This document shows, one piece after another, positions 1 through 59,000 of a stretch of DNA of 64,000 bases. The notes below the pieces were generated by a model. It did not search any database. It saw only the letters and a program-made list of their open reading frames with translations, and was not told where the DNA came from. A program made the position numbers and the translations under genes. Origin of the DNA: an uncultured delta proteobacterium (GTDB lineage: Bacteria; Desulfobacterota; Desulfobacteria; Desulfobacterales; B30-G6); NCBI GenBank assembly GCA_963823335.1, contig CAWGLD010000001.1, positions 96,001-160,000 on the forward strand, given 5' to 3'. The stretch's first letter is position 1. The number at the start of each line of letters is the position of its first letter.

Positions 1-184
1 TATAAACCAAAACGATACAATAGACTGCGAAAAAACTATAGGGTCTGGGGGAGATTTTTTTTCGCCTGGCCCCGGAGATGTTGTTGATATAGGAACTTGT
101 TTTTAACTAATGTGAAGTAATTTATAAAATTGGTTCATTATAATAAACAGGGTCACGATGGCTCTGCCTGTTCATTAAATTATT

Positions 185-362
185 GTGGATCTCTCCAGCA
201 AAAATAAGGTTATCAGACACCCTAAAAATTACCGGTGTGCGAAAATAATCACAACAGGCCAAAACTTGCATTGATAGACCCTGCCGTGATACCTTGGTGA
301 TGACCAGATGGTATCTGAAAAATCCCCAACTTGTCGGATAGTTGGACTTGTCTCCATGTATC
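185..362 (+). repeat. ~175-bp cassette-separating module, copy R1 (variant right half)
   Basis: gtggatctctccagcaaaaataaggttatcag...accggtgtgcgaaaataatcacaac...ggacttgtctccatgtatc; aligns by eye with R2-R11. Confidence 0.95.
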
Positions 363-366
363 GGTA

Positions 367-2415
367 TTGCGACACGAAGTCGCGTATTTTAACTGTTCAG
401 CGGAGGCATTTAGCCTTTGTCTGAACCCAGTGTCCCGTCGCTGCGATCCTATGGAAGCATGCGCTCAAGGTGCATCCTTGACGGGTATGAAGCCTTCCCG
501 ACAATGCGCCGAAGTTCGCCTGTGCGAGCGGTGTGGAAACCGTGAGGTGGAAACGCTCCTGGAAGCTCCATCCGGGTGAGGTGTTAGGATAGGATACTAT
601 GGTCAACGTAAGTAAACACTTGTAACTGCCGTGAATATGAACAAGCCAAAGGAGCTGTGAGGCTTGAACCAAAACGGTAAGTGGGTGGTTCGGATGGATT
701 GCTGAACGTCCGACACGGGCAGTATTCCCACCGGCAGAGCAGAGTGGACCTAAGGTATTCGCTGTTGGATACGTGGAACGTGGTAACCTCATGCCTTCGC
801 CTTCGGGCAGGCTAACCGTAAGGCATGCTGTGGGAGGTATGAGGAGAGAGGATGGAAGAAGCGAAGGCCATCCTGTAATGGGGTGGATACAGGTTGAGAG
901 CCTTAGGCTCGATATTACCTAACCCGCGAGGGGGCTGACGTCCATCGGGTGCTTCGTTGCGAGATAGTTTGTAGAACTTCTAAAGGAGGAAAAGCAAATG
1001 AGGGCTGCTAAAAAGCAGATCCATGCGTCCTCCCGCCGTACTCTTAAGTGGACTTCCATAAACTGGAAGAAAGTTAAGAAGAAGGTGAAGGAGCTGCAGA
1101 TGCGTATCGCAAAGGCCGTTCGAGAAGGAAAGCTACGGCTGGTTAAATCTTTGCAGTGGCTTTTGACTCATTCGTTTTATGGTAAACTTTTTGCCATAAG
1201 ACGGGTTGTTACCAACAAAGGAAAAGCAACACCGGGATCCGATGGTGTTGTGTGGAACTCATCTAAAAAGAAGATGCAAGCTGTAAACCTGCTAAGCCGA
1301 AGAGGATATCGTCCTTTCCCCCTTCGGCGGGTTTATATACGGAAGAAAAACGGCAAACTCCGACCTTTAAGTATTCCCACCATGAGGGATAGAGCAATGC
1401 AGGCTCTATATGCACTTGCTCTGGTACCAGTAGCAGAGACAATCGGTGACCTAAATTCGTACGGGTTCAGAGATGGTCGATGTTGCGCCGATGCCATTAA
1501 GCAGTGCTACAATTGTCTGGCAAAGCGTCGTTCCTCGCGGTGGATTCTTGAGGCCGACATTCAAGCCTGCTTCGATAGAATCGATCACGAATGGATGCTC
1601 AACAATATCCTGACTGATAAAAAGATACTTAGAAGCTGGCTAAACGCCGGATACATAGACGAGGGTAAACTTTATCCAACCAAAGCGGGTACTCCACAGG
1701 GATCAGTTATCTCTCCTGTACTTGCCAATATGACCCTGGATGGACTGGAAGCGGCTATTAGAAATGCAGTTCCCAAGAACGCCAAGGTCAACATGATCCG
1801 GTATGCAGATGACTTTATCGTAACTGGAAAATCAGAAGAGATTCTCCAGGAAAAAGTCAAGCCTGCAATCCGCGCATTTCTCAGCCAAAGAGGTTTAAAT
1901 CTCTCAGGCGAGAAAACAAGGATCACCAGGATAGAGAATGGATTTGATTTTCTGGGCCAACATCTGAGAAAATTTGGGGATAAGTTTATTGTTACCCCAT
2001 CAAAGAACTCGGTGAAAGGCATTGTTTCCAAAACAAAGGAAGTCATCAAATCCCATCTTGGCAACGCAACAGCGGAGATGCTACGAGAGCTCAACCCAGT
2101 AATCCGGGGATGGGCCAACTATCACCGCCATGCATGCTCCAAGAAAGCCTTCAACTATGTTGATTCCCGCATCTTCAATAATCTCTGGATATGGGCTAAA
2201 AGAAGGCATCAGGATAAAAAGGCCCAGTGGATACGAAATCGTTATTTTCGAACCATTGGTAACCGGCAATGGTGTTTTTTTGCAACCAAAAAGGCAGAGG
2301 GAGGTGGGGTTGGCGTCATCGATTTGGTCTATATGGCCACGGTAAAAATAGTTCGTCATACGAAAATCCGTGGCAAGGCAAATCCTTACGACAATAGATG
2401 GCAGGGATATTTTTC
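367..2415 (+). mobile_element. Group II intron (CL1-like), 3'-truncated; no domain V/VI seen
   Basis: TTGCGACACG 5' end at 367; ~630-nt structured leader; RT ORF; no GAGCCG...CGGTTC domain V recognisable after the ORF; 3' limit approximate. Confidence 0.8.
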
Positions 2416-2443: not shown

Positions 2444-2480
2444 CGAAATCTTCAGTTCGATAAAATTTTACAAACACAAC

Positions 2481-2972: not shown

Positions 2973-3059
2973 CAGCATTCCCCTTGATCCTATAAGCTTG
3001 GAGTGTTTTATACAGAGAAATTGAAGATTACTGGCATAAGTCTCCAACTGGCCATTGCC

Positions 3060-3234
3060 GATTTCTCCAACAAAACGGTAGATATCAGGCACGCCAAAAA
3101 TTACCGGTGTGCGAAAATAATCACAACAGCTCAAATCTTGCATTCATAAACCCCCTCGTGGTACCGTGGGGATGACCGAATGGTATCGGTAATATTGCCG
3201 TTGAACTTGATAACTGGACTTATCTCCATCTATC
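3060..3234 (+). repeat. Module copy R2
   Basis: gatttctccaacaaaacgg...ggacttatctccatctatc. Confidence 0.95.
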
Positions 3235-3281
3235 TGTACTTGGATGATATTTGGATTTTCACAGGGGATAAAGGTGGAATA

Positions 3282-4130: not shown

Positions 4131-4218
4131 TATAACATAAACGGATTCCACGGATACTGAAAAAATGGAATTTGGTATACAGAACTATACATTGAAGTGA
4201 ATATTTTGGATTTTGGCC

Positions 4219-4398
4219 GTGGATGTCGCCAACAAAAACAAGGTTATCAGACCCCTTAAATATTACCGGTGTGCGAAAATAATCACAACCGACCGAATCT
4301 TGAATTAATAGTAGTTCTCATGGTACCGTGGAGATGACCGAATGGTATCGGTAATATTGCCGTTGAACTTGATAACTGGACTTATCTCCATCAATCAC
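4219..4398 (+). repeat. Module copy R3
   Basis: gtggatgtcgccaacaaaaac...ggacttatctccatcaatcac. Confidence 0.95.
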
Positions 4399-4553
4399 AA
4401 CTTTGATGAATGTTGTGATAGCCATCTCAGAATAATACTATTGGTTGATTCTTTCTTTTCGGTTTGAATCTCGTAAGGTATTTTTTTTGCAAAAGAACTT
4501 TTTCAGTGCGAAGGAAGCAGAACTTCATACTTTTAATAAAGAAAGGAGGAATC

Positions 4554-5623: not shown

Positions 5624-6948
5624 GAGGGTGTTCAAAATTTTGTGTCAGTCTAACTGAAAGCTGATATATACAGCCCAAAGGAGACTGACATGCCAAAAGA
5701 TAATGCAGATTTTGATTTCCAGAAAGCCCTCAAAGCCATCCAATCAGGCAAGCCCCTTACTGGCAAAGACGGGGTGCTCACCCCATTAATCAAGAACCTA
5801 ACCGAAGCTGCACTCGAAGGGGAGTTAGACTCCCATCTTGGACAGGAGATAGCGGCCAATCGAAGAAACGGTAAGAGCAAAAAGACCATCAAGACCCTGA
5901 ACGGCTCCTTCGAACTGAACACTCCCCGTGAGCGCAACGGCACTTTTTCACCCCAGCTGATTAAAAAGCATCAGACGACCATCAGCGATGAGATCGAAGA
6001 AAAAATCATTGCCATGTACGGCCTGGGCATGAGCTATAAAGACATATCTTTTCATCTTGAGGATATCTATGGCATTTCTGTCTCTAAGGGCACTCTGACT
6101 GCGATTACAGATAAAATCATTCACACCGTGAAAGAGTGGCAAGCCCGGCCGCTTGAAACGATATATCCCATTGTCTGGCTTGATGCCATACACTACAAAA
6201 TCCGTGAAGATGGCAAGGTCCTCAGTAAGGCTGTTTACACGATCCTCGGGGTCAATATTGAAGGCCGCAAGGAGGTCCTTGGCCTGTATATCTCAGAGAA
6301 CGAAGGGGCCAACTTCTGGCTGCAGGTGCTGACCGATCTCTCTAACCGTGGCGTTGCCGATATCCTGATCGCCTGTATTGATGGGCTAAAAGGCTTTCCA
6401 GAAGCCATCGAGACAATCTTCCCCAAAACGGAAGTGCAACTTTGTGTGGTGCATCAAATTCGGAATTCCTTAAAATACGTTGGCTCCAAAAACCAGAAGG
6501 AATTCATGGTCGATCTCAAGCGCGTCTACAAAGCAGCCAACAAGGATTTAGCCGAATCCGAATTGGACAAGCTCGAAGCCAAGTGGAACGACAAGTATCC
6601 GATTGTCATTAAGTCCTGGCGCAACAACTGGGAGCGTCTGAGTCAATTCTTCAAATACCCGGAGGATATCCGCAGGATCATTTACACAACGAACACCATT
6701 GAGGCGGTTCACCGTCAATTCCGTAAGCTGACCAAGACTAAAGGCGCTTTTCCGAACCAGGACAGTTTGTTGAAATTACTGTATATGGGCATCCAGAATG
6801 CCAGTAAAAAATGGACCATGCCGGTTCAGAACTGGTCATTAACTATCTCTCAGTTGGCTATATTTTTTGAGGGCAGACTGGATAAAGAATTAAAGCTCTG
6901 ATATGATTAATTACAATTTAAAACTGACACAGAATTCTGAACATACCC
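5624..6948 (+). mobile_element. IS256-family insertion sequence
   Basis: Imperfect terminal IRs gagggtgttcaaaattttgtgtcagt / actgacacagaattctgaacataccc; no target duplication seen. Confidence 0.9.
5690..6901 (+). CDS. IS256-family (Mutator) transposase
   Basis: RNGK, WLDA, DGLKGF, QLCVVHQIRNS, IYTTNTIE. Confidence 0.95.
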   Translation: MPKDNADFDFQKALKAIQSGKPLTGKDGVLTPLIKNLTEAALEGELDSHLGQEIAANRRNGKSKKTIKTLNGSFELNTPRERNGTFSPQLIKKHQTTISDEIEEKIIAMYGLGMSYKDISFHLEDIYGISVSKGTLTAITDKIIHTVKEWQARPLETIYPIVWLDAIHYKIREDGKVLSKAVYTILGVNIEGRKEVLGLYISENEGANFWLQVLTDLSNRGVADILIACIDGLKGFPEAIETIFPKTEVQLCVVHQIRNSLKYVGSKNQKEFMVDLKRVYKAANKDLAESELDKLEAKWNDKYPIVIKSWRNNWERLSQFFKYPEDIRRIIYTTNTIEAVHRQFRKLTKTKGAFPNQDSLLKLLYMGIQNASKKWTMPVQNWSLTISQLAIFFEGRLDKELKL

Positions 6949-7123
6949 GATTTCTCCAACAAAAAGGTAAATATCAGCTCTCTGAAATTGTACCGGTGTG
7001 CGAAAATAATCACAACCGACCGAACCTTGCGTTGGCGTACCTTTCCGTGATACCTTGGCGATGACCATATGGTATCGGTGATATTCCCGTTGAACTTGAT
7101 AACTGGACTTATCTCCATGTATC
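6949..7123 (+). repeat. Module copy R4
   Basis: gatttctccaac...ggacttatctccatgtatc. Confidence 0.95.
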
Positions 7124-7189
7124 AAAGGCGTGAGCACTATTAGATTTCCCCCAGAATATCTTTTCCAAAAGGTTCAAAATGACCATTTC

Positions 7190-9123: not shown

Positions 9124-9170
9124 AGGATATCTGTTGTATATCTCATATCTTTCAGATATTCAAAATAGTG

Positions 9171-9346
9171 TAGTATCTCCAACAAAAACAAGGTTATCAG
9201 ACCCCTGAAAATTTACCGGTGTGCGAAAACAATCACAACAGACGGAATCTTGCATTGGTAAGGTCTCCCATGGTACCGTGGGCATGACCGTATGGTATCG
9301 GCAATAATTTCGTTGAATTTGATAACTGGACTTGTCTCCATGTATC
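9171..9346 (+). repeat. Module copy R5
   Basis: tatctccaacaaaaac...ggacttgtctccatgtatc. Confidence 0.95.
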
Positions 9347-9559
9347 TGCAATTGAATGATAGTCGGTTTTATGCTTGACTGAACATAATTCCTCCTCTAT
9401 ATTCGATTAATCTATACTAAAACTTCACTTCCTCTGAATCTGAATATCCAATTCTAACTCTACACTTCATCTGAAGCTGCCCTGTCAAAGCTGTAAGCTT
9501 TTCTTTCTTCACTTCGATCATTGATAAAACCTAATATTAATCTGAAAGGAGGACATGAA

Positions 9560-9967: not shown

Positions 9968-10283
9968 CCATGAATAAAAATATTCCCTATTCAATCATGA
10001 GGGTCTTTATGATTGCCGAATGCCGTATTTTACGAATTAGTGGGATCCATGGTCCTCGTTAACTGGATCACGCATACTTTTTGATGCCGATGAAGATGAC
10101 GCGATTATTGGAATGTCGGTTCCGTAATCAAAAGATACACCAATGCATTTTAAATCTCTGATAAAAGGCGGAATAAAGAATGGTTTCGCCTTTTGCTAAT
10201 TTTATATGCTTAACCATCCCTGAAACTTATATTGATTGACAGGTATTTCAAATTCTATGCTTTTCATAGCCCCGTAAAATATG

Positions 10284-10462
10284 GTGCTGTCTCCAACGAT
10301 TCGGTAGATATCAGAGTGCTGAAAATTTACCGGTGTGCGAAAATAATCACAACAGACCAATTCTTGCATTGGCAGGACCTCCCGTGATACCGTGGGCATG
10401 TCCATATGGTATCAGCAATATTGCCGTTGAACTTGGTAACTGGACTTATCTCCATAAATCAC
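10284..10462 (+). repeat. Module copy R6
   Basis: gtctccaacgattcgg...ggacttatctccataaatcac. Confidence 0.95.
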
Positions 10463-10564
10463 AGTTTCCAGTTTGAAGACTTATTAGCGTAGCCTTCAGT
10501 TTGGTATTATTTTCATCGACCACAAGATGTGGTATCGGAAATTTTAGATGAATGGTGTAGCTCC

Positions 10565-11032: not shown

Positions 11033-11052
11033 GTCAAGGATAGGGAACACCT

Positions 11053-11228
11053 AGCACTCTCCAACAAAAACAAGGATATCAGACCCTTAAAATATTACCG
11101 GTGTTTGAAAATAATCACAACAGGCAGAATCTTGCATTCATAAGCCCTAAAATGGTACCATGGCGATCACCAGATGGTATCGGTAATATTGGCATTGATC
11201 TTGATAACTGGACTTATCTCCATGTATC
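11053..11228 (+). repeat. Module copy R7
   Basis: ctctccaacaaaaac...ggacttatctccatgtatc. Confidence 0.95.
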
Positions 11229-11585
11229 AGTACCTGACTGGCACTATGTTTTAGTATAAGATGTGTAAATCTATTCATTACTTTTTGGATAATCTTTTCC
11301 ACAATCAGGCATAACTTCCAGCAGCAGAATCAGCGTGACCCCTACTAATGTTCTGTTTATCAAAACCTTCCAATCTTGCACAATAATTGCATTCACCAAT
11401 AAAGATAAAAAAGTTGTCATTTAGTTGGCTTGTTGCAATGATTGAAAAACGTTATCTATCTGCGGATAGTGGAAGTCTCAATACATCTATGCTTCATCTG
11501 ATAGTTGATTTTCAGAGTTCTTAGACTATGATAGTCTAAATTGACCAGACCTCAACCGGATTCTCGCGCTGGAAAGGAGTTGGAA

Positions 11586-14000: not shown

Positions 14001-14098
14001 AACGTCAATTCGCAGGATTTCGAAATGTCGCCATACTGAGTGGATGTCTCGGACAGGGGGACCATCACGACGACTAAAAATTGAGGTTTCCTAAAACC

Positions 14099-14340
14099 GT
14101 GGATATCTCCAACAAAAACAAAGATATCATGCACGCCAAAAATTACCGGTGTGCGAAAATAATCACAAATTAAAAGGGTGAGTCCGAGCCATGGATTCGC
14201 CCCTTTTTTATTGGCACAAAGCAGCGTTATTAGGGTCTACAGTTTGACACCAGGTTTAATGATGCGATAGACTGCATATATCCAGATGGTATCGGTGATA
14301 ATTAGGCTGAGCTTGATAACTGGACATCTCTCCATGTATC
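14099..14340 (+). repeat. Module copy R8, centre replaced by unrelated DNA (14169-14281)
   Basis: Left part 14099-14168 and right part 14282-14340 match the consensus. Confidence 0.9.
14172..14209 (+). terminator. Intrinsic-terminator-like hairpin inside R8
   Basis: aaaagggtgagtcc...ggattcgcccc followed by a T-run. Confidence 0.55.
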
Positions 14341-14433
14341 CGTATATTTCGTTAATAATTTTTTATTTAAAATTCCTGGCCGGTTATAATGGTTGTTCTA
14401 CAGTTAAATTTGGTCTCTACAAAGGATGATTAA

Positions 14434-16029: not shown

Positions 16030-18255
16030 ATGGCTATGAAACCGACATTACCCACAAAGCTTATCAGTACTACTAAAGAAGGGTTGTCTGGCATAATGAC
16101 AGGAACGGTTGCCATCACTGTTAGTTTGTCGATGGCTGCGCTGATATTTCATGGTAGTCTTGCTAATTTTATTGGTTACGGCATAGGAGCCGTTTTATGT
16201 ACTACCATATTTATCAATTTAATTTTACTCATAGGATCTTCTTATAAGGGGATAGTCGCCGCTCCTCAATCTGCAACCTCGATTGTTTTAGCGACTGGTA
16301 TTAGCCTATTATATGATAAATCTCTTCAAGGAGATAACCAACAAGACTCGCTTTTGCTTATTGCCGGCTTTGTTTTATCAACCTCTATCATTACAGGAAT
16401 ATTTCTATTTGTTGCCGGTAAATTCAATCTGGGGAAATTGGCTCGCTTTATCCCTTACCCTGTGATCGGGGGTTTTTTAGCTGGAACGGGCTATTTAATA
16501 ATCAAAGGCGCTGTTTCTTTCATGGTCGGTTTTACAATTTCCTTCGATACGCTCCCATTTCTAATTTCAAATCAATCGTTTCTAAAGCTATTGCCTGGAA
16601 TAATAATAGCATTTATCATGTTCTTTCTGTCAAAAACATCTCGCCATCTGATTCTTTTCCCGTTATTTATATTGTGTTCTATATGCCTGTTTTATAGCGG
16701 TTTATGGATCCTGGACCTGTCCCATGAAACTGCCTTGAAGTTGGGTCTTGTCATGCAATTAAACACAGGTGAATATTTTAATTTATTGAATATATCTAAT
16801 ACAATATCCAAAATTGACTACTCCATTATCTTAGAACACAAATGGACTATATTTTCGATTGTTTTCATTACGTCGATTGCACTATTGCTGAATTTGAGTA
16901 GTTTAGAACTTATCGTCAAAGATGACATAGATCTTGATAAAGAGTTAAAGTTGTGTGGTACCGGCAACATCGTTTCTGGCTTTTTTGGGGGCATCGTCGG
17001 ATACCAAATGCTCGGACCTTCAGCGTTAAATCATACCCTTGGATTAAAGTCCCGGGCCCCAATAATAGTATTAATAATAATGAGTTTTATTATTCTTTTT
17101 TGGGGTCATGATTTCTTAAAGTTTTTTCCTGTCCCACTTATCGGCGCTTATTTACTGTTTATCGGGTTGAATTTTCTACACGACTTTTTGTATGATAGTT
17201 GGCTGAAATTGCCGTTAAGTGAATACATAATAGTGCTTTGTATTTTAATGATAACTGTATTCAAAGGTCTTCTTTCTGCTATTGCATTTGGAACGATTGC
17301 AGCTATTTTCATATTTATCCTCAATTATGCAAAAGTAAAAAACATAAAAAGCATAACAACCGGTGAACATCATAGAAGCAATGTAGAAAGATCTCCCATT
17401 GAGGAGGAATTGTTCAAGCGTGAAGGTAGGAGAATACGTGTATACCGGTTGAATGGTTATCTGTTTTTCGGAAGCGTATACAATTTGTACTTGAATGTTA
17501 GGGAATATACACTTGAAACTGGAAACAATCATGCTGGATTCATTGTTTTGGACTTTAAAGATGTACAGGGCATGGACTCGTCAGCCATTCATAGTTTTTT
17601 AAAAATTAGGCAAATTGTACAGAATGGTCAAAAGGTCAAGCTGATATATACCCAATTGAACCCTAATCTCCACAATTTATTTATAAAAGGATCGGTGTTA
17701 ATTGGTAAAAATGACTCAAGTGTCTACGATGATTTGGATCGAGGTCTCGAATGGTGTGAAGAACAAATACTTAATGAGAATGGTTTTAAAGCTGACAGAT
17801 TAAATCAATTCACCGCCGTGCTTGAAAAAATATTCGAGAATGAAAATGAAACTATTCGGTTTAAGAGCTACCTGACCAGAAAATTTTTCAAAAAAGACAC
17901 TGTCCTTATGAAAAAAGGTGAGTTCTCAGAAACTCTTTATTTCATCGAAACCGGACAATTTTCAGTATTAAGAAATGACCATGAGAAATCTTCAATAAGG
18001 TATCGAAAAATTGGGAGTGGAGCTATAATTGGCGAGATGGGTTTTTTTTCTAACAACAATAGAACAGCTTCAGTTATTTCAGATAAAGATAGCTTTGTTT
18101 ATGAATTAAACCTTACGAATATGAAAAAAATGGAAAAAGACTGTTCTAAAATAGCGTTCAAGTTTCAAAATTACGTAATAAAATTATTGTCAATGAGATT
18201 AAGCCGATCAACTCAGGAAATAAATTCACTATTAATTGATTATAAAAACCGTTGA
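16030..18255 (+). CDS. SulP-family anion transporter with STAS and cNMP-binding domains
   Basis: FIPYPVIGGFLAGTG; GYLFFG..LDF..V.GMDSSA; GEMGFF...RTASV. Confidence 0.9.
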   Translation: MAMKPTLPTKLISTTKEGLSGIMTGTVAITVSLSMAALIFHGSLANFIGYGIGAVLCTTIFINLILLIGSSYKGIVAAPQSATSIVLATGISLLYDKSLQGDNQQDSLLLIAGFVLSTSIITGIFLFVAGKFNLGKLARFIPYPVIGGFLAGTGYLIIKGAVSFMVGFTISFDTLPFLISNQSFLKLLPGIIIAFIMFFLSKTSRHLILFPLFILCSICLFYSGLWILDLSHETALKLGLVMQLNTGEYFNLLNISNTISKIDYSIILEHKWTIFSIVFITSIALLLNLSSLELIVKDDIDLDKELKLCGTGNIVSGFFGGIVGYQMLGPSALNHTLGLKSRAPIIVLIIMSFIILFWGHDFLKFFPVPLIGAYLLFIGLNFLHDFLYDSWLKLPLSEYIIVLCILMITVFKGLLSAIAFGTIAAIFIFILNYAKVKNIKSITTGEHHRSNVERSPIEEELFKREGRRIRVYRLNGYLFFGSVYNLYLNVREYTLETGNNHAGFIVLDFKDVQGMDSSAIHSFLKIRQIVQNGQKVKLIYTQLNPNLHNLFIKGSVLIGKNDSSVYDDLDRGLEWCEEQILNENGFKADRLNQFTAVLEKIFENENETIRFKSYLTRKFFKKDTVLMKKGEFSETLYFIETGQFSVLRNDHEKSSIRYRKIGSGAIIGEMGFFSNNNRTASVISDKDSFVYELNLTNMKKMEKDCSKIAFKFQNYVIKLLSMRLSRSTQEINSLLIDYKNR

Positions 18256-18428
18256 TTTCTCCAACGAAAACAAGGTTATCAGCCCCCTAAAATATTACCG
18301 GTGTGCGAAAATAATCACAACCGACCGAATCTTGCATTAATAATAGTTCCCATGGTACCGTGGGGATGACCGAATGATATCTGACAATTTTTCAGATTGT
18401 CGGATAGTTGGACTTGTCTCCATAAATC
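18251..18428 (+). repeat. Module copy R9 (same variant right half as R1)
   Basis: gttgatttctccaacg...ggacttgtctccataaatc; overlaps the SulP stop codon. Confidence 0.95.
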
Positions 18429-18661
18429 TGTATTGCGAGAATAGTAGTTTTTCATCAAAATATTAAAGTCACCCAGTGGCAATTCACCCATACCTTGACC
18501 CATCATGACGAATCGTGTATATACCTTATAACATACTTGAATCACACCTGATCTAAAGCTGTTTCTCATTGTTTACACGTAGCCTAAGCCCTTTCTCGAC
18601 TTGTCAGTACCTTCCCAAAAGGTATTATAATTATACAAATCAACAACTTTGGAGGTGACTA

Positions 18662-19171: not shown

Positions 19172-19189
19172 TAAACGACAAATTCAACC

Positions 19190-19352
19190 GTCTTTTCAAC
19201 AACTATGCAGATATCAGGTGCTCCCGAAATTAAAATTATCACAACAGACCAAATCTTGCATCCATAGACACCTACGTGGTACGCTGATGATCACCAGATG
19301 GTATCGGTAAATTTATCAGGGAAATTGATAACTGGACTTTTCTCCATGTATC
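19190..19352 (+). repeat. Module copy R10 (degenerate; lacks accggtgtgcg)
   Basis: atcacaacagaccaaatcttgca...ggacttttctccatgtatc. Confidence 0.9.
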
Positions 19353-19642
19353 AAAGATTGATGTAGAACATAAAAAGGCATCTATAGAATATTAGTGTTA
19401 TGCATTTTTAAAACCTATACTAATATTTTTTTAGAAAACGAATAATAATGAAAAATCATATTCTAGTTCTTGTCGTAGGAAAGTTGAGGTGGAAATCAAT
19501 TGGCAGCTTCAACCCGAATACGTTTCCACCGGAATTACGAAGCACGGCAATGAATTGTGGTGATCAGCTTGCTTTAAAAAATAAATCGAACTTTGTTTAA
19601 AAAGAAAATAGAATATCATAAATTATCGAGAAGGCGCAGCCT

Positions 19643-20899: not shown

Positions 20900-21127
20900 C
20901 GCCGCTAAACAGATAACTGAAAGCACTCGGCCTTGAAGAACCTACAAGTACCCTGTCAGTATCGCGAGGAAGTGCCGGATTGTGGTCACAAACGGGTACC
21001 TAAAAATCATATGGGATTGAAAACCCGTGATAGCTGGTACCTTTCCTATAGGTAGATGTTGTGGAGGCGAGCGAGCCCGTAGGGTGTAGCTCGCGGAGTC
21101 TCCACAACTCTATCGATAGGGGTTTTC

Positions 21128-21301
21128 AAGCCTCCAACAAAAACAAGGTTATCAGATACCTAAAATTTCACCGGTGTGCGATTATAATCACAACAGGCTG
21201 AATCTTGCATTGATAAGAATTTCCGTGGTGCTTTGGTGATGCCCAGATGGTATCGCTGATATTTACATCAAACTTGATAACTGGACTTATCTCCATAAAT
21301 C
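21128..21301 (+). repeat. Module copy R11
   Basis: cctccaacaaaaacaagg...ggacttatctccataaatc. Confidence 0.95.
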
Positions 21302-21411
21302 TGTATGTTGAGCGAGTTTCCCCAAAAGTAACGCAATTATCATATTTCAAGGCCTATTTGACCAAGAATTAATGCTTAGCTATACCTTTAAATCAAAAAG
21401 GAGGTCGTAGG

Positions 21412-22527: not shown

Positions 22528-22745
22528 AAAGTGGCTGACTTGTGATTTCTCCAACTCATCAACGGTGTAGAGGCCTTCTGAAAAGTGGTGATACCACATT
22601 GTCAATTCATGCCCTGACTCGGTTTTCAATTCTGTCAATTCAAGTAAGTATAGATCAGGACATATCATGATATGCATTTTTTTTGGAGCTTGCAGGTTTT
22701 TGACTGAATTTGGATCCACAATTATGGCGAGGTCCCCTTTTCAAT

Positions 22746-25584: not shown

Positions 25585-25636
25585 TTGAAGAACCTCGCAG
25601 CAAGCTACGGGGAATGCGCTCGCTGCTGCGGTTCAA
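25585..25636. repeat. REP-like palindromic repeat (also 30330-30472 as a doublet, and 44056-44107)
   Basis: ttgaagaacctcgcagcaagctacggggaatgcgctcgct...cggttcaa. Confidence 0.85.
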
Positions 25637-45616: not shown

Positions 45617-45692
45617 GTGGTACGCTGGGCATGACCAGATGGTATCGGTAATAATTTGGTCGAGTTTGATAACTGGACTTGTCTCCATGTAT
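45617..45692 (+). repeat. Right half of the module
   Basis: gtggtacgctgggcatgaccagatggtatcggt...ggacttgtctccatgtat. Confidence 0.9.
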
Positions 45693-45738
45693 AGCAACCG
45701 TACATTTTATTAATTTCAGTCGATAGGACATCTGATCA

Positions 45739-46701: not shown

Positions 46702-47276
46702 ATATGCGAGAAGCCATTGTAAAGGAAGCCGATATTGTAATGCCTGAAGTGGAAATAGCCAAGGTTTCCATGAGAATTATGTTGTCGTTAATCAATACAG
46801 GCAAAAAAATATTTGGGAAAGAGCCTATTGATGTTGGGGCTGTCCAATTGGAAGGTTTTATCAATTGGCTAATAAAGGGGTATAGGGGAGCAACATAATA
46901 ATTTGCGGTGTAAAATATGCCTACTCCTAACCGGTGTTTGCAACGCAAGAATACGGCTATAATCGTTCAGTCTGAGCAATTGTCCGAAGACTGAAGACGC
47001 CCATAAAACCACAATTATTTCTCAGAAGGACTAGAGCTATCTCAAAAAAGTTTTTTGACCCAATTTCTGTGTTGGTCCTTGCTTCAACTCCTCGGAATAC
47101 TTCAGTATGCCTGCGGGTTGAAGTTCGGGCCCGCCTTGAACTTGAGCCAAAACCCTTTTTTTGAGATGGCTCTATACCATTTTTTACGGCAAATGGTTTC
47201 ATTCCATCTCAGTGCCGCTGTATCGATGATCTTTTTGCGTACAGGCCACAATTATGGTGAAATCATTTACAAATGA

Positions 47277-48167: not shown

Positions 48168-48294
48168 TTGTTGTTGGTCTGCCTATTCAGGTCAGCATCA
48201 AATTTATGAAAAGCGTGTCTGTCTATCAGCATCTGGTAGCGTGTGTCAATTCATTTAAAACATCCGATCAATTCCAATACTCGCCAAACAGCCC

Positions 48295-48421
48295 TGTGTT
48301 CGATTATATTCACAACTACCCAAACCTTGCCAAAACAGTTCTCCCCGTGATACCTTGGAAAAAGCCAAAGCGTATCGGCGATATTGCTATAAATTCCAAT
48401 ATGTAAAATTCTCCATGTCTC
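48295..48421 (+). repeat. Diverged module copy
   Basis: gtgttcgattatattcacaac...ttgccaaaac...gtgataccttgg...tatcgg...ttctccatgt. Confidence 0.75.
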
Positions 48422-48500
48422 TGTGGCCACTGATATCTGGTTTTCAGGTTATGGGTACTAAGCGTAGAATTTGGATTTCGCACAAATCGGAGGCTTCCAT

Positions 48501-49273: not shown

Positions 49274-49397
49274 GTGGTATCTAACAACAAAACGGTAGAT
49301 ATCAGACCCCTGAAAATTGCCGGTTTGCGAAAATAATCACAACAGGCGAAATCTTGCACTCATAGGCTCTTCCGTGGTACCGTGGGCATAACCAGAT
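49274..49397 (+). repeat. Left two-thirds of the module (includes the promoter motif)
   Basis: caacaaaacggtagatatcag...aataatcacaac...gtggtaccgtgg. Confidence 0.9.
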
Positions 49398-49431
49398 AGA
49401 GACTTTCAATTGTCGATAAGGAGGGAATATT

Positions 49432-50511
49432 ATGAAAGTATTAGCCCTTAATTCCAGTGCACGGACCGGGGGCCAGAGTAAAACCGAACTGATGCTAAGC
49501 CACTTGGTAGAAGGAATGCACGAGGCAGGAGCCGATGTTGATGTGGTCAATCTACTGGAAAAGAATATAAAAAACTGTGTCGGGTGCTTTTCCTGTATGA
49601 CCAAAACCCCGGGGAAATGTGTGCTCAAGGACGACATGACAGGAGAGCTCTTCCCAAAATGGCTGGAATCCGACCTGATTATATACGCCACACCTCTATT
49701 CCATCATACTGTCAATGCAACCATGAAGACCTTTATAGAGAGAACCTTTCCGATTTGCGAACCCTTCCTCCTGGAAAGGGAGGGGCGCTGGGTTCACCCC
49801 CTTCGAAGGAATCACCCTGGGGCAGTGGTTCTTTCCGTATGCGGGTTTCCCGCAATGTCCGCCTTTAGCGCCCTGACTCACTACGCGAAATTTCTTTTTG
49901 AAGAGCAGGAAAAAGGGAGGCTATGGGCCGAAATCTATCGCCCAGCTGCCGAATTTATGTACCGAAACGTCGATAAGCAGAAAGATATACTCGACGCCAC
50001 CAGGCAGGCGGGGAGGGAACTCGTGGAGGCTCACAAGGTTTCTCCGGGAACACTAGCGCGCATAGAACAGCCACTTGCTGATAATCTTTCTGATTTTGCA
50101 AAGATTACAAACTGTATGTGGGGGACCTGCATTGCCGAAGGGATTACCAAGAAAAAATTTGAGAAACAAGATATGATACCCAGACCCGATTCAATCGAGA
50201 CTTTTATGCTCCTGATGCCCATGGGATTTAATCCTGAACGTGCCGGTGATACAAAAGCGACCTTACAGTTCGAATTTACAGGCAGCGTGGAAGGCTCATG
50301 CCACCTTATAATTTCAGATGGAACTATCAAGGCCAGGGAAGGAAAATCAGAAAAACCGGATCTTGTAATAAAGACACCCTTCGATGTCTGGATGGATATT
50401 CAAACCGGCAAAGCGGATGGAGGTCAGATGTTTATGGAGGAAAAGTATAAGGCAGAGGGTGACATGGAGCTGTTATTGAATATGAGTAAGTTCTTCGGCC
50501 AGAACCATTAG
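49432..50511 (+). CDS. Iron-sulfur flavoprotein/NADPH-FMN reductase with SCP2 domain
   Basis: CVGCFSC...PGKC, YATP; C-terminal SCP2-like fold. Confidence 0.85.
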   Translation: MKVLALNSSARTGGQSKTELMLSHLVEGMHEAGADVDVVNLLEKNIKNCVGCFSCMTKTPGKCVLKDDMTGELFPKWLESDLIIYATPLFHHTVNATMKTFIERTFPICEPFLLEREGRWVHPLRRNHPGAVVLSVCGFPAMSAFSALTHYAKFLFEEQEKGRLWAEIYRPAAEFMYRNVDKQKDILDATRQAGRELVEAHKVSPGTLARIEQPLADNLSDFAKITNCMWGTCIAEGITKKKFEKQDMIPRPDSIETFMLLMPMGFNPERAGDTKATLQFEFTGSVEGSCHLIISDGTIKAREGKSEKPDLVIKTPFDVWMDIQTGKADGGQMFMEEKYKAEGDMELLLNMSKFFGQNH

Positions 50512-51050
50512 AAAAAGAGCGTTGAAGATTTCGGCTATCATTGTTCACTCAGACCTATGACTTTAAAAGCGTGGATTGATAATAAAATTCCACGCTTTTG
50601 TTGTTTCTATGGCTATACAATATAATGTGGTGATGGCGTCTGGCATGAAACCTGTGATTTCTCCATCTATCGTTACTTGCCCAATATTTGGTTTTAGAGA
50701 AACATTTCAGAACATATCACAACCCATTCAAAGCACCTGAAAAATCCATATCTTGTGGACTTCATAATTTTTTGATATTGTGCCGATTAATCTGAAGCAG
50801 GCGAGAATTTGACCTGATCTTCCAACACACCGCACCACAATACACCTGGTTCAGTCTTTCGTTCACACGTTTCACAATAGCTCAACGATACTTGAGTTTG
50901 GTGTAACTTAACAATAATGCAAGTATCTTTGACTAGAAGCTATCTCAAGCAGTGTTAATATATGGCAACCTTCGGCTTCATGTACGAAGTACTTATACGC
51001 TGCATAGAGTACCCGGTTAACCGCACTTCCTGTCTGGGGCTTTTTTGCGT

Positions 51051-51644: not shown

Positions 51645-51765
51645 CGGTCAGGGTGTTCGTCCCTTGAGCGCTTGCTTCCATAGGATCGCAGCGACGGGAC
51701 GCTGGGTTCAGAAAAGAATTTAACACCCCCGCTGAACAGTCAAAATACGCGACTTCGTGTCGCAA
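51645..51765 (-). mobile_element. 5' fragment of a related group II intron
   Basis: Reverse complement matches 367-~480 (ttgcgacacgaagtcgcgtattt...gtcccgtcgctgcgatcctatggaagc). Confidence 0.85.
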
Positions 51766-51769
51766 TACC

Positions 51770-51878
51770 GATACATGGGAGATATCCAGTTATCAAACGC
51801 AACCAAATTATTACCGATACCATTAGGTTATGCCCAAGGTATCATGGGGAGGACTGTTTTGGCAAGGTTTGGGTATTC
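51770..51878 (-). repeat. Inverted, diverged module copy
   Basis: Reverse complement: acccaaaccttgccaaaac...tgataccttgg...tggtatcggtaat...gataactggatatctcccatgtatc. Confidence 0.85.
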
Positions 51879-52328
51879 GTTAATCTGATACCGTTTCCCC
51901 GCTCGGTAAAACCCGTTTTTCCGTTCTGATCAGGCAACCTCAAGGAGGTGAATATTGGCCACCCGCTTGCACAGGCTGTACATTCTTTGCAGTTTATCCA
52001 AAGCGGACACCTCTATACATTAGCCCAACCATTATTTCAAATCAGTTTAAACATACAAGACAGGAAATATTATGATATCATCACCTCGGCTGGACTCGCC
52101 TGAGCCGGTGATATCAGATAAAACTTAACAGCACATGGTTCGATGAAGAGCTCGAAAATACAATTCTTGACCCATCCTTCCAAATCAGGTACTAATTTTA
52201 TAGTCGCTTAAATCACACCTGCTCTGATGCTGGATCTCATTTCCAACGGACCTAACCTCTTTCTGTAACAGATATTGCATTTCCAAGACGTATCATCTTC
52301 TTCAAACCCCAACCAGAAGGTGATCCAC

Positions 52329-54086
52329 ATGCCCACAGAACCAAAGTTAACACGCAAACTCAGAGCCATCCTGTCTGCGGATGTTAAGGGCTACAGCATC
52401 CTTATGGCTGATGATGAAGTTCATACTATCCAGACGCTGAAAGCGTACAGGCAAATTATGTCTGATCTCATCCAACAGCATTCTGGTCGAGTAATCGATA
52501 AACCGGGTGACAATCTACTTGCCGAGTTTGGGAGTGCTGTTGATGCTGTTGAGTGTGCTGTACAGGTCCAAAACAGACTGAAGAAAGAAAATGCAAAGTT
52601 CGTTGGGGAAAAAAGAGTTCAGTTCCGCATTGGCGTAAATATAGGTGACATTGTTCAAGATGAAGATCGTATATACGGAAGTGGTGTAAATGTTGCTGCT
52701 CGAATTGAAGGGCTGGCTGATCCGGGTGGTATATGCGTATCCCGAAGTGTATATGACCAAGTGAAAGATAAAATCGAGTTGAGGTTTGAATACATAGGTG
52801 CGCATGAGGTCAAGAACATAAAAGGACCGGTGCGTGTGTACAGGGTCCTGATGGATTCTGACAAACCGAAACTTCTGGTTGAAAAAAGACTTGAGTTGCC
52901 AGATAAACCGTCCATTGCAGTCCTGCCATTCACTAACATGAGCGGTGATCCAAGTCAGGAGTACTTCAGTGACGGGCTTACTGAGCAGATCATCAACGGT
53001 CTTTGTAAGGTTTCAAATCTGTTCGTGATAGCACGTAACTCAAGCTTCGCCTATAAGGGAAAATCGATCAGTGCCAAGCATATCGCCAAGGAACTTGGAG
53101 TTAAATACATCCTTGAAGGAAGTGTACAGAGGGCTGGCGATCGTGTGAGGATTACAGCACAACTGATCGATGCTACAACGGACTACCATATGTGGGCAGA
53201 TAGCTATGATCGTGATCTATCAGACATATTTGCTTTGCAAGATGAAATTGCATTAAAACTCATGGGGGCCATGTCAGTAAATCTGACCTTTGGGGAGCAG
53301 GCGCGATTATGGGACGGAGGAACAACAAATATCCAGGCTTATGATATGCATATGCGAGGAAATGATTGCTTCTTTCGTAACAACAGAAAAGATAATAAAC
53401 AGGCACAGCAATTTTATCAGAAAGCTATCCACATCGATAAGGAATATGTCTCTCCATATACCATGCTGGGCTTCACACATATTCTTGATCTCCTCTATAG
53501 ATGGAGTGAGTCACCAATAAAATCCTTTGAGCAAGCTGAAACATATGCTGACAGGGCCCTTACATTGAATGATTCTTATGATATAGCCCATATGCTATTG
53601 GGTTGGATTTACCTGTTTAAAAGACAACATGATGAGGCAATTAAAAAAGGAGAGCGAGCTGTTGAACTTAATCCTAACGGAGCTGAAGCCTACGCCAATC
53701 TGGCATTCATCCTTATCTATTCAGATAGAACAGAATTAGGTATCAAATTCCTTAAATGGGCATTTCGGCTTAATCCATTACCACCCTTTCACTTTTATAT
53801 ATTTCTGGCAATAGCTCACCGAAATAATGGAGAATATGAGAAAGCAATAGCGTTAGCTGAACAGAGTATTCGTGGTAACCCAGACCAGCTTACACCGTAT
53901 CTTACATTGGCCTCTTCTTATAGTTCTTTGAACCGTGCTGAAGAAGCTCGCAAGGTTGTTGAGGTAGCCCTACGAATAGATCCGAATTTCTCTCTCGAAC
54001 ATTATGCGAAGACACTTCCATATAAGAATCAAGAAAGTTTGGATAACGATATCAATTCTCTTCGCAAAGCAGGACTACCCGAATAG
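52329..54086 (+). CDS. Adenylate/guanylate cyclase-TolB-N-TPR protein
   Basis: Paralogue of 7357-9123. Confidence 0.9.
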   Translation: MPTEPKLTRKLRAILSADVKGYSILMADDEVHTIQTLKAYRQIMSDLIQQHSGRVIDKPGDNLLAEFGSAVDAVECAVQVQNRLKKENAKFVGEKRVQFRIGVNIGDIVQDEDRIYGSGVNVAARIEGLADPGGICVSRSVYDQVKDKIELRFEYIGAHEVKNIKGPVRVYRVLMDSDKPKLLVEKRLELPDKPSIAVLPFTNMSGDPSQEYFSDGLTEQIINGLCKVSNLFVIARNSSFAYKGKSISAKHIAKELGVKYILEGSVQRAGDRVRITAQLIDATTDYHMWADSYDRDLSDIFALQDEIALKLMGAMSVNLTFGEQARLWDGGTTNIQAYDMHMRGNDCFFRNNRKDNKQAQQFYQKAIHIDKEYVSPYTMLGFTHILDLLYRWSESPIKSFEQAETYADRALTLNDSYDIAHMLLGWIYLFKRQHDEAIKKGERAVELNPNGAEAYANLAFILIYSDRTELGIKFLKWAFRLNPLPPFHFYIFLAIAHRNNGEYEKAIALAEQSIRGNPDQLTPYLTLASSYSSLNRAEEARKVVEVALRIDPNFSLEHYAKTLPYKNQESLDNDINSLRKAGLPE

Positions 54087-56047: not shown

Positions 56048-59000
56048 ATGCCCACAGACCAAGATAAAACCATTCGTAAACTCAGAGCCATCCTCAGTGC
56101 TGATGTTAAAGGTTATTCCCTCCTGATGGCAAACGATGAAGCTTTCACGATAAAGACACTCAAAGCTTATCGAAACATCATGTCCGACTTGATTAAACAG
56201 CATAACGGTCGTGTTGTGGACTCTCCTGGCGATAATGTTCTGGCTGAATTTTCCAGTGTTGTTGATGCGGTGACATGTGCAACGGAAGTTCAGAATGTTC
56301 TCAAAGCGAAGAATGATGACCTTCCTGATGATAAAAAGTTGGAATTTCGTATCGGAGTCAACATAGGTGATGTTGTTCAGGATGGAGATCGTATTTATGG
56401 CAATGGCGTAAATGTAGCTGCCCGTATCGAAGGTCTTGCTGAACCAGGCGGAGTATCTATTTCCCGCAATGCATATGGTCAAATAAAAGATAAGCTGACA
56501 TTTGGGTACGAATACATTGGCGAACATGAAGTTAAAAACATCAAGGATCCGATCAGGGTTTACAAGGTTCTAATGGATCCTGCGGACTCTGGTAAATTGA
56601 TCGGTGAAGAACCGAGGCGTCCGAGAAAGAAATGGTTTTTACCTGTAGCTGTCGTTGCCGCAATCATTGTGACATCTACCGTTTGGTATATTTACCAAAG
56701 CGTTTCAAAACCAGACATTGAGCCCGCGGTTATCGAAAAGATGGCATATCAGTTGCCAGACAAACCATCTATAGCCGTCTTAGCCTTTACCAATATGAGT
56801 GGTGAAAAAGAACAGGAGTATTTCTGTGATGGCCTGTCTGAGGGGATCATCAACGGTCTCGCCAAATCCGATCGCCTTTTTGTGATCGCCCGAAACTCCA
56901 CCTTTACTTATAAGGGTAAACCCGTAATGGTTAAGCAGGTGGCCGAAGATCTGGGAGTTCGTTATGTGCTGGAGGGGAGCATTCAAAAAGTTGGCGGCAG
57001 GGTGCGCATCACAGCTCAGCTCATCGATGCCCTGAGCGGACATCACCTTTTCTCTGAACGGTATGACCGGGAGTTGAAGGATGTCCTGAACCTGCAAGAT
57101 GAAATCACGATGAAAGTGCTAACGGTAGTGCAGGTAAAATTAACCGTGGGAGAGGGTGCGCTTGTCAGTGCAAAGGGGACCAAAAACCTTGATGCATATT
57201 TGAAAGTCTTGCAGGCTCGTGAGCATAAGGGCGGTATAATGAATAAAGAGCGGGTTGAAAAAGCCATTCAGTTGCTTGAGGAGGCCATTGCCTTGGACCC
57301 TGAATATTCATATGCTTACTCTATCCTGTCTACCGCCCATATGGACCTGGTTGCTCTTGGCGCAAGCGACTCGCCCAGAGAATCCCTGCGGCGATCCATT
57401 GAGCTGGGAAATAAGGCTGTCGCCCTGGATGAATCCAATCCATCCGCTCACGCAAATTTGGCATTTCCTTATATGCTCCTCGGTGAGTACGATAAGGGCA
57501 TTTTGGAGGCTGAAAAGGGCGTGTCCCTCGCCCCCAATTATGCCGGGGGATACTTTGCGTTGGGAGCCGTACTCGCCACGGCCGGTCGGCATCAAGAAGC
57601 TATCCCTGTTTTCAAAAAGTGCCTTCGTCTAAGCCCCGTACCCGTACACAGCCAAGTCCTGGGTATGCTGGCCACTTCATATTTAGCGGTGGGCCAATTT
57701 GAGGAAGGGATAGCCACATACAAAAAGGTACTGCATATCTATGGCCCAGATCAGTTGCCAGCACACCTGGGACTGGCTGGTACCTATGCATTTATGGGTC
57801 GCGAAAAAGAAGCACGTGCTGAAGGCGCAGAAGTCATGAGGATCGATCCTGAGTTCTCCGTGGAACGCTACTTAAAGTCACGCCCTTATAATCAGTCCAG
57901 AAAAGATCGCATCGAAGCCGCCTTACGCAAGGCGGGGCTTCCTGATAAACCACCACAGTCACTTCCTGACAAACCATCTATCGCGGTCCTTCCATTCACA
58001 AACATGAGCAATGATCCAGAACAGGAATATTTCAGTGATGGTATGACCGATGAATTAATCGGTGACTTGGCAAAGATAAAGGATCTTTTGGTCATATCCC
58101 GCAACTCAGCGTTTACCTATAAAGGGAAGTCCACAAAAGTTCAGCAAATCGCAGAAGAGCTCAACGTTCGATATATTCTTGAAGGTAGCGTACAAAAGTC
58201 AGGGAACAAGGTGCGTATAAGAGCTCAGTTGATTGATGGGAAAACCGATTATCACCTTTGGTCTGAAAGCTACGATGGTAAAATGGATGACATCTTTGAA
58301 CTGCAGGATAAAATTACAGGTAAAATTGTATCTGCTCTCGCACTAAAGCTATCACCATCTGAAACTGATAAAGTTGCATCTAAAGGGACAGATAGTATTT
58401 TAGCCCATGATCTATATTTGAAAGGAAATGCATATTTAAGACGATGGTCACCGGATGATTTAGTAAAGGCGATTGATTCGTATGAAAAAGCAGTCGAGCT
58501 GGATCCAAACTATAGTCATGCATATGTTGGATTAGCACAAGCCTACCGTAAAAACGTACTCGGTGGTAAGTCCTTTCAAGATAAAACAGGCCAAGATTTT
58601 GGTGGATCTCACATTTTAATGCGCCATTACCTTGAATTGGCGATGAAAAATCCAACGCCAGACGCCTATAGTCTTCTCGCCATGTTTGAGATAAGAAGGC
58701 GGCATTACAAAGAAGCATTAACACTTGCAGAAAAAGCTGTGACCTTCGCCCCCAATAGTGCCGATGCTTTAAGAATCTTAGGAATAATATTAACCTATAT
58801 CGATAAGCCGAAGGCGGCAATCCCAATTATTAAACAGGCAATAAGGCTGAACCCTTTAGAAGGGAATTTTGAATTAGGGTTTGCCTATATGGCAATGGGA
58901 AATTATGAAAAAGCTATAGAATCAGTTCAGAAAAGCTTGGCGGATAATCCACAGTTTCTACAACCGCATATGGTTGCTGCTGCATCCTATGCCCATCTTG

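Follow-up and report, generated by a model that had tools for sequence, protein, structure and literature searches.

We consider it fairly probable that the sequence GTGATTTCTCCATCTATC, an 18-mer read directly at positions 50654-50671 of the 64,000-nt stretch of genomic DNA analysed here (the window), is a real junction core site of a cassette system other than an integron, a reading drawn from sequence comparison. The anatomy of the junctions, the counts of their motifs, the breakpoints of near-identical units and the recombinase gene described below are observed features. The sequence-only reading had placed a stand-alone join of module ends at 50654, about 140 bp after the flavoprotein gene, and we found it there, 143 nt past the stop codon of the FMN_red/SCP2 gene; the right ends of modules that it had quoted were likewise located, at 4386 and 10450. 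The site is best explained as a rare gene-to-unit junction that lacks a module and carries a complete copy of the junction site, consisting of a left arm, a core and a right arm (Table 1). No module body was detectable at 50654 with nhmmer, the profiles of the two module families, A and C, reaching 3.7 and 4.4 bits, respectively, over the site itself only, and the 58 nt between the hairpin downstream of the flavoprotein gene and the core were without module similarity. The terminator scan called no terminator near the site, this hairpin being left uncalled because its loop is 13 nt. The site is the final '+' junction ahead of a flip in array orientation, the module at 51745-51872 being '-', and the array around it has decayed, the modules at 45617 and 48293 being partial and that at 49277 lacking its right part. 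The earlier description of an empty site is apt in that no module body is present and the same downstream sequence follows a module elsewhere, but the site belongs to a decayed array and is not a virgin target.

Table 1. Junction site, modules and associated features in the window
Feature	Position	Strand	Basis
A module, followed by group II intron (Rfam RF02012 at 426-583)	175..388	+	nhmmer 2e-59
A module	3050..3267	+	nhmmer 7.9e-65
A module	4214..4423	+	nhmmer 2.1e-63
A module	6934..7154	+	nhmmer 1.5e-60
A module	9162..9379	+	nhmmer 1.4e-63
A module	10272..10487	+	nhmmer 1.6e-59
A module	11044..11260	+	nhmmer 2e-60
Split A module, parts 14088-14168 and 14273-14347	14088..14347	+	nhmmer, alignment
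A module	18240..18458	+	nhmmer 1.4e-59
A module	19179..19368	+	nhmmer 2.5e-44
A module, left end joined to truncated copy of another repeat	21116..21328	+	nhmmer
Left-type junction GTGATT|TCTCCA|AC opening a different 88-nt repeat (family D11)	22542..22644	+	second copy at 25493-25590
A module right part with core	45617..45706	+	nhmmer 1.3e-19
Partial A module	48293..48427	+	nhmmer 9.8e-12
A module without right part, abutting start of flavoprotein gene	49277..49397	+	nhmmer (profile 22-142), alignment
FMN_red/SCP2 flavoprotein gene, upstream of the site	49432..50511	+	Pfam
Hairpin AAAAGCGTGGA..TCCACGCTTTT, 3' of flavoprotein gene	50567..50601	+	read by eye
Left arm of junction site, TGAAACCTGTGATT	50646..50659	+	sequence read; aligns with final bases of A and C modules
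Core TCTCCAT, putative crossover region	50660..50666	+	homology of near-identical units begins or ends here; motif count 86 vs 16 expected
Right arm CTATC (nnATC)	50667..50671	+	T..ATC after core in 45/46 located A-module right ends
Unit B, non-coding, opening at the core	50660..50928	+	87% identity over 286 nt to C1:1514664-1514399(-); ten contexts
A module, opposite orientation; group II intron fragment (51662-51778) at right end	51745..51872	-	nhmmer, alignment

Using a profile built from ten copies in the window, we found 89 matches to the A module (nhmmer, E<=1e-3) in the 4.37-Mb, 11-contig genome, 48 of which were full length (profile positions <=30 to >=198); because the assembly is 93.9% complete, these copy numbers are lower bounds. 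The modules are non-coding, with lengths of 190-245 nt (about 190 nt for the A form), and contain an internal box, ATGGTATCGGTAAT. Their matches run in blocks of a single orientation, all 19 on contig C7, for example, being '+'. Between neighbouring module matches on the same strand there were 63 intervals, 61 with an ORF of at least 100 aa; in 55 of these the longest ORF ran along the module strand, in the other 6 along the opposite one. The genes between modules are unrelated to one another and include GNAT acetyltransferases, adenylate cyclases, a PAS-LuxR regulator, a sulfate permease, a choloylglycine hydrolase, cytochrome c' and gluconolactonase-like genes. The A module was also present, again in arrays, in other related genomes, 12 of the 41 searched (the source genome counted) and 9 of the 14 other genomes of the source's family.

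We located cores at the left end of 42 and at the right end of 46 of the 48 full A copies; in the other 6 and 2 the core-finding pattern failed, and these were dropped. The A module opens with nCTCCA|AC and closes with ..TCTCCA|TnnATC, so that CTCCA stands in direct repeat at both ends of the located copies, as it also does in the C modules. At the right junction, TCTCCA was found in 45 of the 46 copies and T..ATC directly after it in 45 of 46, with ATCAC in 10 of 46, and in most copies the core is preceded by an inner module arm, GATAACTGGACTTn. At the left junction, the shared core is CTCCA, preceded by a variable base and followed by ACAAAA, and the arm is weak, with G, A and T at -4, -3 and -2 in 24, 29 and 31 of 42 copies. 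GAT was complete at these positions in 16 of 42 copies (38%), compared with 166 of the 7683 CTCCA in the genome (2.2%); the binomial p of 2e-16 overstates this difference, as do statistics on the modules in general, since the copies are mutually related and not independent. The longer GTGAT was found at the left arm in 2 of 42 copies. The CC of the core is the centre of symmetry of the pattern GAT-n-TCTCCAT-nn-ATC, in which 3 bp are conserved per arm. Thus, of the 7-bp inverted arms proposed earlier, the symmetry about the core stands, reduced to triplets, and the conservation of flanks expected across genomic copies is evident on the right and partial on the left.

A second module family, C (the labels B, C and D were assigned in this analysis, in which several arm comparisons were made by eye), is about 245 nt long, is represented by seven full copies and some weaker ones, contains a hairpin followed by a T run, and is bounded by nCTCCA|AC on the left and ..GGATC|TCTCCAT on the right. 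The claim that the module ends define a discrete unit is therefore upheld by two families with the same bounds. A and C modules were each found joined to one and the same point of another repeat, CTCCACAAC|, and one A module to a different point of it, suggesting that the left core may also be a breakpoint.

Genome-wide, we found TCTCCATNNATC 86 times, compared with 16.1 expected from a third-order Markov model, and 58 of the 86 were at the right ends of A modules. Twenty of the remaining 28 were aligned, of which seven belonged to C modules, three shared another repeat and three lay at an IS end; eight copies were outside arrays, in keeping with chance. The full join, GATNTCTCCATNNATC, occurred three times in the source genome and 19 times in 15 genomes of the family, whereas the reversed control gave none. 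These 19 comprised 15 C-module ends, the 50654 site, one locus (L290) with no A or C module before the join and a B-like start after it, and two without array features. A looser 13-mer with up to two mismatches was found five times, a number reached by 9 of 100 shuffles and so within chance; the argument is thus carried by the repeat family and the comparisons that follow.

Self-comparison of the array regions yielded three informative pairs. For example, C5:288-1285 and C10:29068-28070 matched at 98.7% over 999 nt, the similarity setting in exactly at the initial T of TCTCCAT, with two different repeat families upstream of the breakpoint. Similarly, C7:213.6-214.7 kb and C7:227.0-228.1 kb, each preceded by a different A module, were identical from TCTCCAT onwards, across the gene and the module that follows it, as far as the end of TCTCCATGTATC. 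The third pair, of 1.8 kb (C7:231150-232950 and C4:535468-537268), turned out to be copies of an IS that has inverted ends of 16 bp, encodes a DDE transposase (DUF772, DDE_Tnp_1_6) and lies inside the core, with TCC on both sides, at two junctions; because this unit is an IS, the pair marks the core as a target and has no bearing on the recombinase. One pair of units remained identical for about 60 nt into the downstream module, which fits movement of gene and module together rather than of modules alone. From these breakpoints we infer an exchange point within or beside TCTCCAT.

Unit B, of about 270 nt, offered a comparison at the 50654 site itself. At the counterpart of this unit on contig C1, a full A module directly precedes the core, and similarity between the two loci, which extends for 270 nt on the right, ends about 16 nt to the left of the core. 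We found unit B beginning at TCTCCAT in ten contexts in five genomes, the window copy included, preceded by A modules or their variants in six, by a C module in one (by eye), by an IS end in one, by a short unclassified stretch in one and by nothing in the window copy. The two bases following TCTCCAT were CT in 6 of the 10 unit B starts, whatever preceded them, compared with 7 of 46 overall; these bases thus appear to go with the downstream unit, which would place the exchange within or just 5' of TCTCCAT, although a crude general test for a link between these two bases and the dinucleotide that follows them gave no significant result (p 0.20). No DNA-level orthologue of the flavoprotein locus was found in nine genomes of the genus, and the comparison of filled and empty junctions is therefore confined to unit B and the duplicated units. 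Another candidate for comparison, a cytochrome c' region with 92% identity in G008, was set aside, since it had no core sites nearby and its homology stopped at an IS256 insertion. Within this scope, the expectation that filled and empty junctions differ at the core was borne out, unit B and the duplicated units breaking at TCTCCAT; these breaks also favour the proposed crossover at CTCCA, the exact position of cleavage being one that we infer. Further junctions without a long module were found at C4:537268, L290 and L131. Joints between two modules, or of the kind that an excised circle would carry, were absent from the genome and the loci, and none of the 80 metagenome loci with the 18-mer carried any module sequence among the matches listed.

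The 14-nt left arm TGAAACCTGTGATT matches the inner right arm of the A modules, TGATAACTGTACTT, at 10 of 14 bases and, by eye, the flank to the left of the long form with the recombinase gene, AAAACCTGTGGAA|TCTCCA, at 10 of 13; alignment with the C profile showed that it also resembles the inner right arm of the C modules. We read these likenesses as a sign that all left arms may share one loose consensus, and the same likenesses are compatible with the stump of a lost module. A C-module remnant to the left of the site was considered and dropped, since just the last 30 profile positions aligned, at 4.4 bits.

A long form of the module, 1.1 kb in length, is located at C1:163754-164862, 3.7 kb past the right end of the window. 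Its left part (profile 8-86, E 2.7e-13) lies 940 nt from its right part (131-221, E 1.2e-15), and the interval contains, on the opposite strand, a PF00589 gene encoding a 278-aa Xer-like protein, which supports the suspected link between the modules and a tyrosine recombinase. In the direction of the gene, the long form consists of GATTGATGGAGA, the reversed right part of the module, a Shine-Dalgarno-like GGAGG with an ATG, the gene, a GGGTGG..CCACCC hairpin and the reversed left part of the module, ending with GTTGGAGA. Because the A module and the 1.1-kb unit share both ends, the modules are best regarded as partners of the recombinase unit that lack the gene, and the short modules may be miniature derivatives of the long form; a blastn comparison found no counterpart in the long form for the central 45 nt or so of the short module. 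In the window, the split module at 14088-14347 encloses a remnant of the terminator hairpin of the recombinase gene (14176-14202). At the head of one array (C1:162-164.7 kb), the recombinase gene (+) and an MttB gene (-) lie on either side of the right junction and point away from each other.

The catalytic domain of the recombinase (C1:164277-164684) scored 65.7 bits against a PF00589 cut-off of 27.1. Residues R142, K165, H224, R227, H251 and Y260 were invariant in an alignment of 12 homologues, with the same motifs legible in the G000 copy, and in our reading they probably form the R-K-H-R-H-Y catalytic set. The best NCBIfam model was recomb_XerA_Arch, at 101.8 bits (cut-off 220), and the closest solved structure, by profile match, was XerA of Pyrococcus abyssi (PDB 4a8e; E 6.9e-18, residues 19-266). 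Against the IntI model TIGR02249, with a cut-off of 265 bits, the module-borne protein scored 33.7 bits and the best match in the whole genome 88.5 bits; by these scores, the recombinase is not IntI. Similarity searches assigned 4303 database proteins, out of 5029 candidates, to the recombinase family at E<=0.001; they bear generic names, and the listed homologues all have PF00589. Among 597 pattern-matching stretches from species-representative genomes, a relative is encoded by 487, mostly in Desulfobacterales and including the cultured Desulfosarcina widdelii and D. variabilis.

Of 80 loci scanned, those of five close relatives had the gene between or beside module parts, with both parts in L045, L048, L063 and L043 (in the last the left part was 2 kb further off) and the right part only in L044. 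In L051, the left part only was found beside the recombinase gene, and the GTTGGAGnnATC end recurs behind the gene in the distant relatives L045, L051, L064, L074, L103 and L057. By eye, the cores flanking the recombinase unit were non-identical in L044 and L074. Of the two copies of the gene in the source genome, one is truncated; the other is whole, but its reading calls for a change of frame at nine consecutive A's. Among 46 loci, 24 combined a broken frame with nine A's at nt 55-63, a further three were broken (runs of 10, 7 and 6) and 19 were intact in one frame; since the break recurs across loci as well as in the source copy, it is a conserved feature of a clade rather than an assembly error. 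Around 27 other recombinase loci, further copies of the flank repeats were found in six. Desulfosarcina widdelii had two whole genes and four flank copies only, so that the family as a whole is not characterised by arrays.

These data are probably best explained by a model in which unrelated, co-oriented genes are strung together, each boundary carrying the same core and most carrying a module of 190-245 nt. The site would consist of a left arm, ..AAACCTGTGATT, the crossover TCTCCAT and the right arm CTATC. The recombinase would pair two direct cores on double-stranded DNA and exchange strands within TCTCCAT; the segment between the cores, whether gene, module or gene plus module, would then leave as a circle, which could re-enter at any other core, with the right-hand junction serving as the main site. 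The junction at 50654 could have arisen either by loss of a module through recombination between a left and a right core or by entry of a unit at a boundary that had no module. Free exchange at any core leaves the strict alternation of genes and modules unaccounted for. A wider reading, possible but put forward as tentative, is that we are dealing with a second, independently built gene-capture platform of Desulfobacterota, in which a small, nested Xer-like enzyme, dependent in many lineages on a nine-A slip for its reading, would exchange double-stranded units at TCTCCAT, gene-less miniatures of its own unit would have reached almost all cassette boundaries and serve there as docking sites, and the 50654 site would represent the minimal substrate.

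The likeness of TGAAACCTGTGATT to the inner right arms of A and C modules, the decay of the surrounding array and the predominance of C-module ends among the full-join matches in the family would all be in keeping with a simpler origin, in which ordinary deletion or decay removed the body of a module and left the site as its right-hand stump, uninformative on excision or on an unoccupied site. We regard this as unlikely, since the similarity to the counterpart of unit B ends so near the core on the left, compared with 270 nt at 87% on the right, the module profiles gain a few bits only, arms of the GTGATT or AAACC.. type also occur on the outer left of modules, the recombinase unit included, and other junctions free of a long module exist. 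It is also conceivable, but improbable, that only a gene with its downstream module moves, by recombination between right junctions as in integrons, the left core being an internal binding site or a relic. In its favour, duplication extends over the downstream module, in whole or for roughly its first 60 nt, the alternation of genes and modules is strict and their orientation shared, and the right junction hardly varies while the left is weak; however, in two module families the left junction repeats the arm and core of minimal sites, members of each family are joined to another repeat at a common point, and junctions without a module exist.

Two further alternatives concern the nature of the modules. 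If they and the TCTCCATnnATC motif were regulatory DNA or RNA, acting as terminator, promoter or leader, the arrays could have grown by duplication with no site-specific recombination, and the position of the modules between genes, on the coding-strand side, the hairpin and T run of the C family and a few weak promoter-like matches in the left part of modules agree with such a role. We nevertheless consider it very improbable: none of the 23 pairs predicted by alifold was compensated by covariation, folding of one module was no better than that of shuffled sequences on either strand (z +1.07 and +1.12, with 172 and 173 of 200 shuffles folding at least as well), no Rfam family matched the module, the sole match in the window being a group II intron, and promoter-like sites were not enriched (57 vs 49.1). 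Moreover, the flanking genes are unrelated, the breakpoints are sharp and a recombinase gene is nested in a module. An ordinary integron, whose IntI is missing from the incomplete assembly and whose modules are long attC sites, has the array layout and the 93.9% completeness in its favour, and by eye the CTCCAAC left end and the GTTGGAC of some copies resemble the R'' and R' boxes of attC. This explanation is scarcely credible in view of the IntI model scores, the folding of the module, which gave no hairpin on the measure above, the breakpoints, which lie at TCTCCAT and not at the G|TT of the R'-like box, and the different recombinase that the modules themselves carry.

Compared with integrons (IntI, attI and attC, especially sedentary chromosomal ones), the arrays described here are alike in being long and co-oriented, with mostly single-gene, unrelated units and a repeated element between them, in that one of them is headed by an outward-pointing tyrosine recombinase gene, and in the settling of group II introns and IS in the recombination element. 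They are unlike integrons in the Xer-like enzyme, which falls far below the IntI cut-off, in a repeat of 190-245 nt that is not a hairpin and has direct rather than inverted cores, in the exchange point at TCTCCAT and in the location of the recombinase gene inside a repeat. Besides integrons, the nearest published analogue is the plasmid dif (pdif) modules of Acinetobacter, which are served by XerC and XerD and in which gene modules are likewise bounded by short Xer-type sites of arm and spacer, the enzyme is Xer-like and an IS family targets the sites. The pdif sites are 28 bp long (11-6-11), alternate in orientation and use the host XerCD, whereas here all cores are direct, orientation does not alternate (as on C7), 3 bp are conserved per arm and the enzyme is carried by the element. 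XerA (4a8e) resolves chromosome dimers at dif; it is a simple tyrosine recombinase of similar length, but the enzyme found here is below the equivalog cut-off, multi-copy and tied to repeats. Integrative elements with attL and attR, following lambda-type logic, share with the modules the same short direct core at both unit ends, the site with inverted arms that results when the outer flanks are joined, and the coexistence of an enzyme-bearing long form with many short forms. Unlike such elements, the units here are of 0.19-1.1 kb, are arranged in arrays between cassettes rather than at one chromosomal attB and have an enzyme without an arm-binding domain, and no attP-type joint was found in the genome, the loci and the listed metagenome loci. 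The IntDes subgroup is described, in the part of the source consulted, as an arm-domain family in Desulfovibrio (Smyshlyaev et al. 2021, PMC8138268), and on that description we rejected membership of the recombinase in this different family. In searches of full-text literature, supplements apart, we found no description of such a system.

Integrons are the textbook route by which bacteria collect and shuffle single genes, and where their cassettes come from is an open question. In the present case, long arrays of unrelated genes in a common orientation are obtained as well, but by way of another recombinase and another site and without a hairpin, and the system seems to be an integron-like gene-shuffling system, in a bacterium of the sulfate-reducer type, made from parts other than those of integrons. 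The inter-gene repeat, being derived from the recombinase unit or sharing its ends, offers a concrete route by which a gene could gain a recombination site. With 4303 proteins and at least 487 loci in species representatives, the recombinase family is large, and cultured Desulfosarcina carry such genes. The 28-nt site (50646-50671) and the two junction types, with a left-arm consensus of ..AAAyyTGnnGATn and a right one of TnnATC.., are ready substrates for a direct test.

A coding reading of the module was considered and rejected. In a few copies, the opposite strand reads ..CDYFRTPVIF..FVGDIHG, which recalls the start of a metallophosphatase, but no copy enters a long ORF, and by eye the conserved runs lack a three-base rhythm. 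The modules also differ from MITEs and DDE transposons, in that their ends are not inverted repeats and the flanking repeat is a fixed core rather than a variable duplication. Other, shorter stretches were found to end in the same core, and a group II intron has settled at a fixed point after it.

The TCTCCAT core, inferred to be the crossover point of the cassette system, appears to attract mobile elements of other kinds. In four contexts, comprising two A modules in the window, one A variant on another contig of this genome (C9) and one C module of a relative, a group II intron starting with TTGCGACACGAAGTCGCG lies exactly 9 nt 3' of TCTCCAT; in relatives, the alignment of the copies to the window sets in at position 342-351. 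The junction site seems to be a homing target of the intron, much as attC is for IIC introns. In addition, a 1.8-kb insertion sequence (IS) with 16-bp inverted ends (GAGACTGTCGAAAAAG), encoding a 501-aa DDE transposase (DUF772 + DDE_Tnp_1_6), interrupts the core as TCTCC|AT at two different junctions, with TCC on either side, and the recombination core therefore looks like a target of this IS as well.

Feature coordinates (positions are in the window unless a contig, C, or an extracted locus, L, of this genome, G000, or of relatives is named)
Feature	Location	Strand	Remarks
Group II intron	376-2450	+	Rfam RF02012 at 426-583; RT/maturase ORF 998-2443
Group II intron fragment	51662-51778	-	
Further group II intron occurrences	C9:19146; L284		
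IS	G000:C7:231150-232950 (L292); C4:535468-537268		1.8 kb
Right end of IS	C1:1767114		
Another repeat family	21079-21130, 25583-25636, 30328-30472, 44054-44107		CCTCGCAGCAAGCTACGGGGAATGCGCTCGC / GAGTCTCCACAACTCTATCGATAGGGG
Adenylate/guanylate-cyclase-TPR paralogues	7348-9123, 52275-54086, 56048-59509; C1:165464-166030		
Truncated A module and the stretch up to the flavoprotein gene start	49277-49431		right part and core of the module missing
Inverted repeats	22750-22913 and 47035-47171		62 nt and 44 nt, 95-100% complementary
Direct repeat	29645-29944 and 43175-43474		300 nt, 100% identical; within the 24-kb block
MttB-family methyltransferase	L293:2034-3521 = G000:C1:162034-163521	-	first gene after recombinase-bearing module
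Recombinase gene	G000:C1:163902-164738 = L293:3902-4738; relatives, L043-L120		

Another repeat family has copies whose truncation points are fixed and coincide with the start of A or C modules. Several adenylate/guanylate-cyclase-TPR paralogues, which have similar leaders, lie immediately 3' of modules and look like a multiplied cassette family. Upstream of the flavoprotein gene, an A module leads directly into that gene's start, including its ribosome-binding site; the right part and the core of this module are missing, and the flavoprotein unit has therefore lost its junction on the upstream side. Between the intact and the decayed array stands a 24-kb block of ordinary-looking genes (a toxin-antitoxin pair, IS110 pieces, a sigma-54 activator, a branched-chain ABC transporter and two AMP-binding enzymes), which is flanked by inverted repeats and may have entered as one large insertion or may be invertible.

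The frame of the recombinase gene is broken by a run of nine A at nt 55-63. Of 46 related loci, 24 show the same break, among them loci in closed genomes of cultured Desulfosarcina, and 19 carry a gene that is intact in one frame, which suggests that the run is a conserved slippage site. The neighbouring MttB gene reads as two adjacent ORFs, covering profile positions 30-337 and 345-499, a layout that would be expected of a putative in-frame stop with readthrough.
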